A stretch of DNA of 15,216 nt, taken from IMG/VR virus record IMGVR_UViG_2582581022_000009. One strand, given 5' to 3'. Below, piece after piece: positions 5,227 through 7,095 of the stretch. Below the pieces are notes generated by a model. That model did no database searches, was not told where the DNA came from, and saw only the letters and a list, made by a program, of their open reading frames with translations. This DNA comes from a virus (lineage: Duplodnaviria; Heunggongvirae; Uroviricota; Caudoviricetes). The translations under genes were made by a program, and so were the position numbers. The stretch's first letter is position 1. Each line of letters opens with the position of its first letter.

Positions 5227-5260
5227 TGAAAATAAAAACAAAAAACCCGCCGAAGCGGGT
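5227..5260 (-). terminator. Rho-independent terminator (minus strand) downstream of the HTH-peptidase gene
   Basis: Hairpin ACCCGC-cgaa-GCGGGT (5245-5260) followed on the minus strand by TTTTTTGTTTTTATTTT. Confidence 0.6.
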
Positions 5261-5264
5261 ATAC

Positions 5265-6368
5265 TCAAACAATCTGGAAAATATTTCTTGGATTTGTAAT
5301 AGGTCTGTTGATGGAGAACAACTCACGAATTAAATCTTGGCTCAAGCCAGTTTTCATAAGAATTCTTAGCCAGGTTGCATCATCCAGCATTTCAATCGCC
5401 TCGGCCAGCATGCCGGGTTCTTCAGGGCGCAAAAGTTCATCACCAGGTTCAACTCTCGTATACCCTCTGGAATTAAGATGCATATAGCCAGTTCTTGCCT
5501 GTTCCTGGGTCAATAAGCCTAATGCGCTGGCTCGATAAATACACATTTTAAGGCTGATTTTCCATCTAAGTTTAAATTCAACCAGAGCATTCCAGTCGAA
5601 TTGCTTACCTCGTATTCGTGGAAATTCTTTAATGAAAGATAACCTGGGAACTAATAAGGCGCTCGAAAAGTGATCGGCTTGTGATTCCGTAAGTTTATCA
5701 CCTGTCGTTATGCCCTCATGCATTACTAAATGCCCTAATTCATGACCTAAATCAGAGCGAAATCTACATATGCTTTTTTTAACATTGTTCCTGATGATAA
5801 CAGGCCTGTTATTGTGAACAGTAAAAGCATCAACACGATCATCGACTCCCGTAACATGCGCAACGATTACCCCTAAACTCTCCGCCAATTTAACCATTGA
5901 TGATATAGGGCCAAGACCTAAATTCCAGGCACGGCGACAATCTTCTGCCACTCGCTCAATATCATTCGGAGTAAGTAATTCAGCCCCTGGGTGCTCCGGT
6001 ATGTTAACGTCAGGAAATTCGATTTCACCTTCAACAGCAGAAATTATAATATTAAGAATCTCAGCCCTGGCCAATACACTATTAGTCAGCGTTTGAGTCC
6101 TGGACTTCTTACTCCGAAAATGGCAGACATCACTTTCCAGAGCGTATTTTCGTTCAGTAAAAAGAAAACTGGACTTAATCATAAGCGCTGAAGATATTAA
6201 CTCAAGACATTGCTCCGATGGCCTGCACCCCTTCTCCAGTTTGCTAACGAATTGCTTTGTCTTGCCAATTTTTTCGGCTAACTCTTCACAAGAAAGCCCA
6301 ACAGCCATTCTCGCTAGTTTGAGCTTATCACCCCGATACTCAGTGAAGTTATTCACCTGATGTTCCAT
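5265..6368 (-). CDS. Fusion protein: N-terminal XRE-family HTH + ImmA/IrrE-type (M78, COG2856-like) zinc metallopeptidase domain
   Basis: HTH: LKLARMAVGLSCEELAEKIGKTKQFVSKLEKGCRPSEQCLELISSAL; peptidase motif HEXXH as SDLGHELGHLVMHEG (HELGH, as in IrrE/ImmA). Overlaps the upstream gene by ~20 nt; sampled 60-bp stretches are ~30-35% GC versus >50% in flanks. Confidence 0.75.
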   Translation of the reverse strand: MEHQVNNFTEYRGDKLKLARMAVGLSCEELAEKIGKTKQFVSKLEKGCRPSEQCLELISSALMIKSSFLFTERKYALESDVCHFRSKKSRTQTLTNSVLARAEILNIIISAVEGEIEFPDVNIPEHPGAELLTPNDIERVAEDCRRAWNLGLGPISSMVKLAESLGVIVAHVTGVDDRVDAFTVHNNRPVIIRNNVKKSICRFRSDLGHELGHLVMHEGITTGDKLTESQADHFSSALLVPRLSFIKEFPRIRGKQFDWNALVEFKLRWKISLKMCIYRASALGLLTQEQARTGYMHLNSRGYTRVEPGDELLRPEEPGMLAEAIEMLDDATWLRILMKTGLSQDLIRELFSINRPITNPRNIFQIV

Positions 6369-6999
6369 CACTGCTCACATCCAAATCTTTATCCTTCGTA
6401 CGCCGACGAAGAGGCACCTTATTAATCTCCGCTTCGTCAGGGAGTGTGTTATAATCAAGAGGCATAAGCGGCATCGATGCTGTAGATTGATGAGAAACTA
6501 TACTAATCTGAGCACCATAAGTATTAAATCCAACAAGAGCTACCTCCCAACGAGGCAGTGTGGACTCTAATTCACCATCGCCCTCTTCGGATAAAAAAGG
6601 CTCAGCTATGACTCGCCATGTAATATCTTGCTCAGCCTCAACATCACCAAACAATGAGAGCTGCTCATACTCTACTTTATTTCGACGCAGACGATGTTTC
6701 TTTTTGGGGTTATTAATGCAATCTTTGGTAAATTGTAGCGGAACTTTATTTAAAGCAACTACATAGTCCAACCCCTTGGAAATCATCTCAAGGCCAGGAA
6801 TTGCATCTTCATTTTGAATAAGATGATTTCTGACCCAATCATAAGCCCTTACACCTTCAGACCAGTTGCTGTCTAATGCGTGCTTATGATAGTACAGCTG
6901 CTCAAGTACGTTAGCGATCTCCGCCAACAAGTGGCGAACATAGTTTTCAGCAAGATAAGGTTGAAATTCCCAACAAGGAGCTAACTGATTTTCATTCAT
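6349..6999 (-). CDS. Hypothetical protein (216 aa), first gene of the AT-rich cassette; no recognisable domain
   Basis: MNENQLAPCWEFQPYLAENYVRHLL...; basic patch KKKHRLRRNK mid-protein, acidic C-terminus; co-oriented and overlapping with the HTH-peptidase gene. Confidence 0.6.
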   Translation of the reverse strand: MNENQLAPCWEFQPYLAENYVRHLLAEIANVLEQLYYHKHALDSNWSEGVRAYDWVRNHLIQNEDAIPGLEMISKGLDYVVALNKVPLQFTKDCINNPKKKHRLRRNKVEYEQLSLFGDVEAEQDITWRVIAEPFLSEEGDGELESTLPRWEVALVGFNTYGAQISIVSHQSTASMPLMPLDYNTLPDEAEINKVPLRRRTKDKDLDVSSDGTSGE

Positions 7000-7034
7000 T
7001 TCAAGTTTCGCTTTTTTTAGAATTCGTAAACCAC

Positions 7035-7063
7035 ATATTTTCGCATTTTTCTATTTTTGTCAA
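7035..7063 (-). promoter_or_regulatory. Putative sigma70 promoter for the two-gene cassette
   Basis: Minus strand: TTGACA (7063-7058), 17-bp spacer, AAATAT, about 35 nt upstream of the 6999 start codon. Confidence 0.35.
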
Positions 7064-7071
7064 CCAGACTA

Positions 7072-7095
7072 ATGCAAAAACCCGCCGAAGCGGGT
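7072..7095 (-). terminator. Rho-independent terminator (minus strand) downstream of hok; same hairpin as at 5245-5260
   Basis: ACCCGC-cgaa-GCGGGT (7080-7095) followed on the minus strand by TTTTTG. Confidence 0.5.

Follow-up and report, generated by a model that had tools for sequence, protein, structure and literature searches.

A duplicated terminator-like hairpin brackets a RosmerTA cassette at a prophage hot spot downstream of hokD

Results

Two copies of one hairpin enclose a two-gene cassette

The 15,216-bp stretch of viral DNA analysed here (the window; IMG/VR record IMGVR_UViG_2582581022_000009, Caudoviricetes) carries a RosmerTA-like toxin–antitoxin operon downstream of the type I toxin gene hokD, enclosed by two copies of a short hairpin. 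Along the minus strand, on which all of these early-right genes lie, the order is QueH, hok/sok, hairpin, rmrT–rmrA, hairpin, a rem remnant, orf94, ydfU and rusA (Table 1). The sequence AAAAACCCGCCGAAGCGGGT is present exactly twice, at 5241-5260 and 7076-7095, in direct orientation. On the plus strand 5239-5260 reads CAAAAAACCCGCCGAAGCGGGT and 7075-7095 reads CAAAAACCCGCCGAAGCGGGT; the two differ by one A, and the exact block common to both is 20 nt long at a spacing of 1835 (repeat family D3). A preliminary description made from the letters of the window had reported this direct repeat, and every detail of it was borne out, including the one-A difference. With 2 mismatches allowed, the 17-mer AACCCGCCGAAGCGGGT matched only these two sites in the 15.2-kb window, and two matches were obtained in 0/200 dinucleotide shuffles.

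Read on the minus strand, both copies are ACCCGC-UUCG-GCGGGU followed by a U run, a perfect 16-nt stem-loop with a UUCG tetraloop that is predicted to act as an intrinsic terminator. They were the two best terminator-like sites of the window, both on the minus strand, with predicted folding energies of -10.9 and -15.1 kcal/mol (51-nt contexts). The right flank of the right copy (TAAGTGCGGGTG) is the conserved hokD side, a combination of hairpin and flank found at 104 hokD loci, and its U-tract side is specific to the cargo. The left copy lies 4 nt beyond the rmrA stop codon and is followed by the U tract (TTTTTTGTTTTTATTTTC, minus strand) that also follows the single hairpin of empty sites (see below). 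Judged by these sequences, both hairpins are copies of the predicted hokD transcription terminator.

The bracketed stretch has a G+C content of 0.39-0.46, against 0.51-0.57 in the ydfU and hokD flanks, and holds two minus-strand open reading frames (ORFs) that overlap by ~20 nt. The 216-aa product of the upstream ORF matched the PADLOC RmrT model and no Pfam family. The RmrA-like product of the downstream ORF contains the Pfam domains PF01381 (HTH_3, 5e-07) and PF06114 (Peptidase_M78, 6e-11) and matched PADLOC RmrA with an E-value of 6e-105; the start given for rmrA in the RefSeq annotation of locus L007 is the equivalent of position 6368. RosmerTA has been described as a two-gene operon of a toxin of unknown function and an antitoxin with helix-turn-helix (HTH) and Zn-peptidase domains (Millman et al, 2022; bioRxiv 10.1101/2022.05.11.491447). 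The cargo has the same layout, with an HTH and Zn-peptidase (M78/ImmA) antitoxin and a gene of the RmrT toxin family adjoining it upstream, matches both models and shows no notable difference. By its predicted products it is an ordinary RosmerTA toxin–antitoxin defence operon, and this allele would be expected to act in phage defence.

Every RosmerTA allele, in each of its contexts, keeps a -35-like motif, TGGTTGACA, at a distance of 11 nt from the terminator upstream, and the TTGACA box may mark a candidate cargo promoter. On the transcribed strand (window 7058-7066) the motif is present once in the window allele and twice, ~40 bp apart, in the L209 and L155 variants. Since it overlaps the -35 box, it may be an operator for the HTH domain of RmrA.

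Table 1. Positions of the hairpins, the cargo and the neighbouring genes in the window.
Feature	Position	Strand	Details
Tail-fibre-assembly gene	1258-1872		
Tail-collar gene	1872-2402		adjoins rusA directly
rusA	3179-3538	-	
ydfU	3551-4600	-	Pfam DUF968, E = 7.5e-77; conserved left backbone, census anchor
orf94	4602-4886	-	94-aa ORF; conserved left backbone
rem-derived chimeric ORF	4934-5155	-	left (downstream) backbone side; partial K-12 Rem match
Left hairpin copy	5239-5260	-	predicted intrinsic terminator of the rmrT-rmrA operon
Probable inserted cargo, moron-like RosmerTA unit	5261-7074	-	1,814 bp; missing from close relatives
rmrA-like antitoxin gene	5265-6371	-	HTH_3 + Peptidase_M78/ImmA-IrrE; 367-368 aa
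rmrT-like toxin gene	6349-6999	-	216 aa; PADLOC RmrT, E = 4.6e-25
Candidate -35 box TTGACA of cargo promoter	7058-7063	-	within TGGTTGACAAAAAT, 11 nt past the U run of the right hairpin
Right hairpin copy	7075-7095	-	predicted terminator, 3' end of hok/mok transcript; U run UUUUUG
mok/hok frame, type I toxin	7165-7377	-	hokD proper ~7165-7320; Pfam HOK_GEF, E = 3e-23
sok antitoxin RNA region	7315-7490	-	Rfam RF01794, 120.5 bits (gathering score 59)
QueH	7558-8244	-	Pfam
IS3-family transposase	8326-9593		rve domains; between QueH and the replication genes

Empty sites carry a single hairpin

We searched 5,426 complete E. coli genomes for relatives of the locus and took further loci from viral contigs (IMG/VR). 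The whole window arrangement was found in 229 of the genomes, and many other loci had the flanks only. One hairpin is present in the rem-hokD prophages L008, L010, L011 and K-12 Qin (L002). In these loci window positions 5040-5260 align up to the hairpin and 7075-7555 align from the hairpin onward, and the left and right alignments overlap on one 21-bp stretch of the empty site (L008 1226-1246). The flanks are 85-99% identical between loci, and at thousands of E. coli hokD loci the homology begins at the hairpin. What follows the left copy in the window is the U tract and flank that empty sites have, and the right copy has the hokD-side flank. Because both window copies map onto the same 21 bp of empty sites, the cargo reads as an insertion at the hokD terminator. 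The preliminary description had stated that rem and hokD adjoin each other in K-12 Qin, which is correct (the order is rem, one hairpin, hokD), and had expected a single hairpin at the empty site if the cargo had inserted at a terminator, as was found in cargo-free prophages including Qin.

The window-type cargo itself is present in 237 of the complete genomes, in 224 of them at ≥99% identity. It had no blastn match in the isolated-phage collection, where only phage Tritos has a RosmerTA system in the slot, of a different variant. A search of genome contigs with RmrA returned a single locus, in Escherichia albertii and cut off by the end of its contig, and no context other than hokD came from it. 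In strain FDAARGOS_1249 (NZ_CP069459.1; hits H1/H71) an IS5-family transposase interrupts an otherwise 100%-identical cargo (equivalent of 5261-7074).

Six cargo classes occupy the same slot

We defined the slot as the DNA between orf94 and the hokD hairpin and used the junction sequence on the hokD side to collect 120 more hokD loci from viral contigs. The census covered ~110 hokD loci with the ydfU anchor and about 130 hokD loci overall. Slots of ≤471 bp, with no rem, a rem-like gene or rem, had one hairpin in 94/94 cases, and slots of ≥750 bp had two hairpins bracketing extra DNA in 16/16.

This extra DNA falls into six classes, given here with their sizes and their counts among the complete E. 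coli genomes. Three are RosmerTA variants: the window type (1818 bp between the hairpin cores, 237 genomes), a second represented by L155 (RmrT, E = 5.5e-93; 1818 bp, 23 genomes) and a third found in phage Tritos and L209 (1848 bp, 41 genomes). All three have the TGGTTGACA motif in common. The others are a pair of HTH and ImmA-peptidase genes (L110; 1331 bp, 48 genomes), a Doc/Fic toxin with a small partner (L004, L140 and L189; ~825 bp, 119 genomes) and a 130-aa lipoprotein (L005; 648 bp, 255 genomes). Summed, the slot cargos amount to roughly 13% of complete E. coli genomes, some of which were possibly counted twice or more. In the lipoprotein cargo ~100 bp resemble the 3' end of rmrA (L005/L009 880-1078, 73% identity to window 5261-5358) and the hokD-side hairpin is degenerate (AAAACGCCGAAGCGGGT), and it resembles a replacement made within an older RosmerTA cassette.

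Multi-cargo arrays were absent from the slot loci examined. The candidate arrays of three or more hairpins in L152 and L205 were rejected: their extra hairpins lie 3.9-4 kb off, beyond ydfU, and are other terminators with different loops.

Different left flanks and cargos are joined at the hairpin

The left flank without rem is empty in 49 loci and is also found with five cargo classes; the left flank with rem is empty in 38 loci and elsewhere holds RosmerTA or Doc. Three unrelated left flanks adjoin the Doc cargo and two to three adjoin RosmerTA, and one left flank that bears Doc is also found empty (L121 and L136 vs L140). In each combination of flank and cargo the homology breaks within a few nt of the A run of the hairpin. 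The duplicated block is 20-23 nt long and varies by cargo, and the right junctions lie at differing positions of the A run, a pattern that fits homology-based joining and does not fit a fixed staggered cut. The 14-mer core, matched exactly, lies at the hokD terminator 104 times in 1.27 Mb of hokD loci, beside a cargo as a second copy 14 times and elsewhere 0 times, which ties the duplication to the hokD slot. On these comparisons the hairpin is evidently the joint of a gene-swapping hot spot and not a single scar.

The same hairpin bounds cargos in a tail operon

The RosmerTA allele of L272 has a tape-measure gene on one side and the next, gpM-like tail gene on the other. The backbone of this phage is not in the E. 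coli genome set, and its empty sites were located in IMG/VR. We fetched 80 relatives of the tail gene (IMG/VR siphoviruses, L284-L363), in which the slot lies just upstream of position ~2501. At 9 of the 80 loci (L289, L297, L300, L332, L355, L356, L359, L361 and L362) the slot is empty: the spacer from the tape-measure stop codon to the next tail gene is 20-21 nt and equals the hairpin alone (e.g. TGACCCGCTTCGGCGGTTTTTTTTATG). In the remaining loci the stop codon and the hairpin are separated by cargos of 320-1870 bp, which fall into 16 classes. Most are lipoproteins; the RosmerTA allele is also among them, as is a homologue of the lipoprotein found in the hokD slot (36% identity, E = 6e-15). 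Here the upstream hairpin copy has decayed or is missing, with remnants in L284, L292, L335 and L360.

The hairpin is common in other phage contexts

An exact 18-mer of the hairpin was found in at least 120 viral contigs. Among the matches listed, 24 are hokD-related and the rest come from contigs of 0.30-0.67 G+C with many gene contexts, some of which belong to the tail hot spot. Many of the ~96 non-hok contexts in this set have the downstream motif TTTTAT(T)GCCyGGAG in common, and those that are independent number fewer than 80, though still many. This frequency in unrelated phage contexts indicates that the hairpin is not a specific attachment site. The preliminary description had named ubiquity of the hairpin at unrelated loci as an argument against insertion; the hairpin is indeed common among unrelated phages, but within the 1.27 Mb of DNA from hokD phages its exact core is confined to hokD and the cargo.

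In ~40 of the 94 listed non-hokD contexts the hairpin is followed by TTTTAT(T)GCC(C/T)GGAG-N5-8-ATG (e.g. L022, L025, L026, L049, L087, L092, L117, L120 and L127). The hairpin, its U run and a conserved Shine-Dalgarno region thus form a block of ~32 nt that stands before many different genes in phages of 0.37-0.63 G+C (IMG/VR L013-L132).

RosmerTA alleles ~80% identical to that of the window are present at five other lambdoid-phage positions, after replication genes, in the nin region and between tail genes. They end in hairpins of the form AACCCGC-loop-GCGGGU+U with five different loops, and most have a hairpin of the same family 10-15 nt upstream of TGGTTGACA as well. These same-family hairpins suggest that terminator ends tend to accompany the RosmerTA cassette when it moves; in the hokD slot the resident sequence is found at both ends. 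The preliminary description had offered as its alternative that both units independently carry the same terminator module, and this holds in part, for the ~80% alleles found elsewhere. In L133 (strain KL53; 2305-2318 and 2338-2436) an 80% allele in the nin region is followed by a DNA-methyltransferase gene fragment and then by a second hairpin, CCCGCCGTAGCGGG, which is identical to the left hairpin of a 94% allele in the hokD slot of L134. This identity hints at earlier rearrangements between terminator-bounded units.

Neighbouring genes place the locus in a defective prophage

The hok/sok system upstream of the cargo has a Hok/Gef ORF, an overlapping mok frame and a sok RNA, and hokD is also identified as such by RefSeq annotation in L007 and L001. 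On the other side of the cargo, the rem-derived ORF resembles K-12 Rem only in residues 16-41, which align to the Rem N-terminus at 73% identity (26 aa); the remainder is unrelated, and the equivalent ORF in L007 is annotated in RefSeq as a partial pseudogene. On this left side, alignment of the window to rem loci is restricted to 5040-5260. To the right of QueH lie replication genes, YdaT, a cI-like repressor and the IS3-family transposase. The Q, lysis and head genes are missing, rusA running straight into the tail-collar and tail-fibre-assembly genes. This neighbourhood identifies the window as a stretch of a defective Rac/Qin-like lambdoid prophage.

Discussion

We propose, with a probability of about 0.7, that the RosmerTA cargo was inserted at a reused hot spot formed by the hokD terminator and that it got there by a short-homology recombination pathway. 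Taken by itself, the insertion of the cargo at the hokD terminator, a hot spot used repeatedly, is very probable. That the pathway was recombination between short homologies within the shared terminator we consider only slightly better than an even bet.

The hairpin would be the intrinsic terminator of the hok transcript, and a self-contained unit of promoter, rmrT and rmrA would have recombined into the genome inside it. Recombination within the terminator would place the hairpin and the start of the U tract on both sides of the cargo, as is now found. Both copies may be functional: the right copy would end the hok mRNA and shield the cargo promoter from upstream transcription, and the left copy would end the cargo operon and still be followed by the U tract and downstream backbone that were there before. 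Most probably the process was short-homology recombination, or template switching, between terminators of identical sequence. By one possible route the cassette would be excised as a circle with one hairpin and re-inserted at any resident copy. Phage recombinases of the Rad52 type (Red-beta, RecT) are plausible catalysts, since Rad52-like enzymes of phages recombine lambda with the Qin and Rac prophages through sequences that are short and diverged (PMC3945230). In the hokD slot selection would keep both copies perfect, the hok mRNA needing its 3' hairpin. The tape-measure gene lies within a late operon and would need no terminator, which may explain why the upstream copy is absent or decayed in the tail slot.

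Several observations weigh against this proposal. The recombination enzyme and the intermediate are both things that we infer, and 20 nt is short for efficient homologous recombination. A consensus promoter scan found no full sigma-70 match at the position of the candidate cargo promoter. The hairpin is very common in unrelated phages, and some of the identity could be convergent. At non-hokD RosmerTA sites the two flanking hairpins are unlike each other, so identical ends are not needed for the cassette to reside at a site, and in most cargo classes of the tail slot no upstream hairpin remnant was seen. It is possible that the lipoprotein cargo and the three RosmerTA variants were not inserted independently of one another; as the lipoprotein cargo retains a remnant of the rmrA 3' end, independent hairpin-to-hairpin events number fewer than six, and a conservative count is three cargo families and several flank swaps.

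Other explanations are argued against to differing degrees by the combinations of flank and cargo, the diversity of loops elsewhere and the lack of an integrase and of terminal repeats. The duplication might have arisen once, in a single ancient insertion, with later cargos taking the place of earlier ones by ordinary homologous recombination that used long flanking homology (hokD, ydfU/orf94) or the partial homology of related cassettes; the hairpins would then be boundaries kept identical by selection for termination, and not sites of recombination. The common TGGTTGACA and similar lengths of the three RosmerTA variants (1818, 1818 and 1848 bp), the high identity of the flanks between loci and the ~100 bp of rmrA-like sequence in the lipoprotein cargo, which seems to have replaced part of a RosmerTA cassette, would all fit such a history. 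It is nonetheless unlikely: the Doc/Fic and HTH+ImmA cargos have no RosmerTA sequence beyond the hairpin and have their own A-run junctions, the joining of Doc to three unrelated left flanks with a break at the hairpin indicates crossover in or at the hairpin, and cargos of another, unrelated hot spot are bounded by this hairpin too. Convergence on an 'ideal' UUCG terminator at both ends, alongside insertion by unrelated illegitimate recombination, could draw on the spread of the 18-mer over at least 120 viral contigs (roughly 80 contexts among the matches listed, 0.30-0.67 G+C) and on the same-family terminators that RosmerTA has of its own elsewhere. Those terminators have five loops, though, and all six hokD-slot classes have the resident sequence (≤1 change, two alleles). 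The left copy is also continuous with the empty-site U tract and flank, no other copies exist in the 1.27 Mb, and the empty-site alignments overlap exactly on the hairpin, all of which makes independent origins very unlikely.

Recognition of a cruciform or single-stranded hairpin by a host or phage enzyme, as with the attC sites of integrons, would account for the topology of the slot, in which a cassette is accompanied by a repeated hairpin and the empty site has a single one, and for the same hairpin bounding two hot spots in different phage groups. The enzyme could be integron-integrase-like, HUH or RAYT-like, or a resolvase such as RusA or Rap, and a gene for the RusA resolvase lies 1.7 kb downstream. 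However, neither the cargo nor the DNA beside the slot holds an integrase or HUH gene, and the only transposase of the window is the unrelated IS3-family one at 8326-9593. The perfect 16-nt stem-loop has no attC-type boxes or bulges, the duplicated length varies and arrays of more than one cargo were not seen, and we rate this possibility as highly improbable. Exact flanking by direct repeats is what one would see if the cargo were a non-autonomous transposable element and the 20-nt repeat its target-site duplication. This is contradicted by cargo ends with no terminal inverted repeats besides the hairpin palindrome, by the lack of a transposase in the cargo and by a duplication that varies from 20 to 23 nt and has the same sequence for unrelated cargos; transposition is the one rival that is fully excluded.

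Insertion by recombination within the hokD terminator has likenesses in several known systems. Morons, a concept of Juhala, Hendrix and colleagues, are said to be extra promoter-gene-terminator units between conserved lambdoid phage genes. The cargo fits this concept in its absence from the same junction in close relatives, its predicted factor-independent terminator and a base composition unlike that of its neighbours; it is also a compact unit with a candidate promoter of its own, and the cargo types, toxin–antitoxin or defence genes and lipoproteins, are typical ones. It differs in that the terminator in the hokD slot appears to do more than end the unit: the gene upstream has the same 20-nt sequence as its resident terminator, and at least three unrelated cargo families are joined exactly at it.

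The promoter-early stem-loops (PeSLs) of T4-type phages (Arbiol et al, 2010, PMC2839356; Comeau et al, 2014, PMC4122927) offer a parallel in operation. In a T4-type phage an ORF lies between two PeSLs where a relative has a single PeSL, recombination was proposed and mini-circles were detected (PMC2839356). As in the hokD slot, a repeated regulatory motif that holds a terminator stem-loop stands on either side of a variable gene in one genome and alone in the relative; for PeSLs, recombination between copies was proposed to shuffle genes and to provide them with transcription signals. PeSLs, however, are ~100-bp composites that join a strong sigma-70 early promoter to a stem-loop in the hyperplastic regions of lytic T4-type myoviruses, whereas the hokD slot has a common block of 20-23 nt and no common promoter and belongs to temperate lambdoid prophages. 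The hokD-slot hairpin works like a PeSL and is not a member of that class. The defence hot spots of P2 and P4 prophages (Rousset et al, 2022, PMC9122126) likewise hold alternative small anti-phage or toxin–antitoxin systems, strain by strain, at a fixed position between conserved phage genes; the hokD slot differs in lying downstream of hokD in Rac/Qin-like prophages and in its nucleotide-exact boundary, a duplicated terminator. Integrons are alike in layout: a hairpin-forming repeat comes after the cassette, and the empty site has a single repeat. The hokD slot, however, has no integrase, attI or Pc, its cassettes would have their own promoter and multi-cassette arrays were not seen. An attC site is an imperfect palindrome of 57-141 bp with R and L boxes and extrahelical bases, which the hokD hairpin does not match. 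With no integrase near the slot and no attC architecture, membership in an integron-like system is ruled out.

A limited literature search found no description of the hokD-rem slot or of a terminator as the joint of lambdoid hot spots. What appears to be new is that a specific ~20-nt terminator serves as the nucleotide-exact joint of a lambdoid prophage hot spot and recurs at a second hot spot. Taken alone the window is ordinary: a defective prophage that has taken up a RosmerTA system downstream of hokD. It is doubtful, if conceivable, that the hairpin (ACCCGCUUCGGCGGGU with its U run) serves lambdoid phages and other siphoviruses in general as a docking site for cassettes that needs no integrase, recognized by sequence or by structure through phage single-strand-annealing recombinases or a hairpin-specific enzyme. 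If it were, defence, toxin–antitoxin and exclusion genes would circulate across genome regions and phage groups between terminator-marked hot spots such as hokD and tape-measure/gpM, and the hairpin would be a terminator-based counterpart of integron cassettes or of the T4 PeSL mini-circles.

The gain and exchange of morons is usually ascribed to unspecified illegitimate recombination. Here the joint is nucleotide-exact, is reused by several unrelated cargos, coincides with a predicted terminator and is common to a second hot spot. DNA between two such hairpins, or between a conserved gene and a hairpin, offers a search handle for candidate defence and exclusion genes of prophages. Recombination within a common terminator would automatically provide both the upstream gene and the newcomer with a transcription stop.

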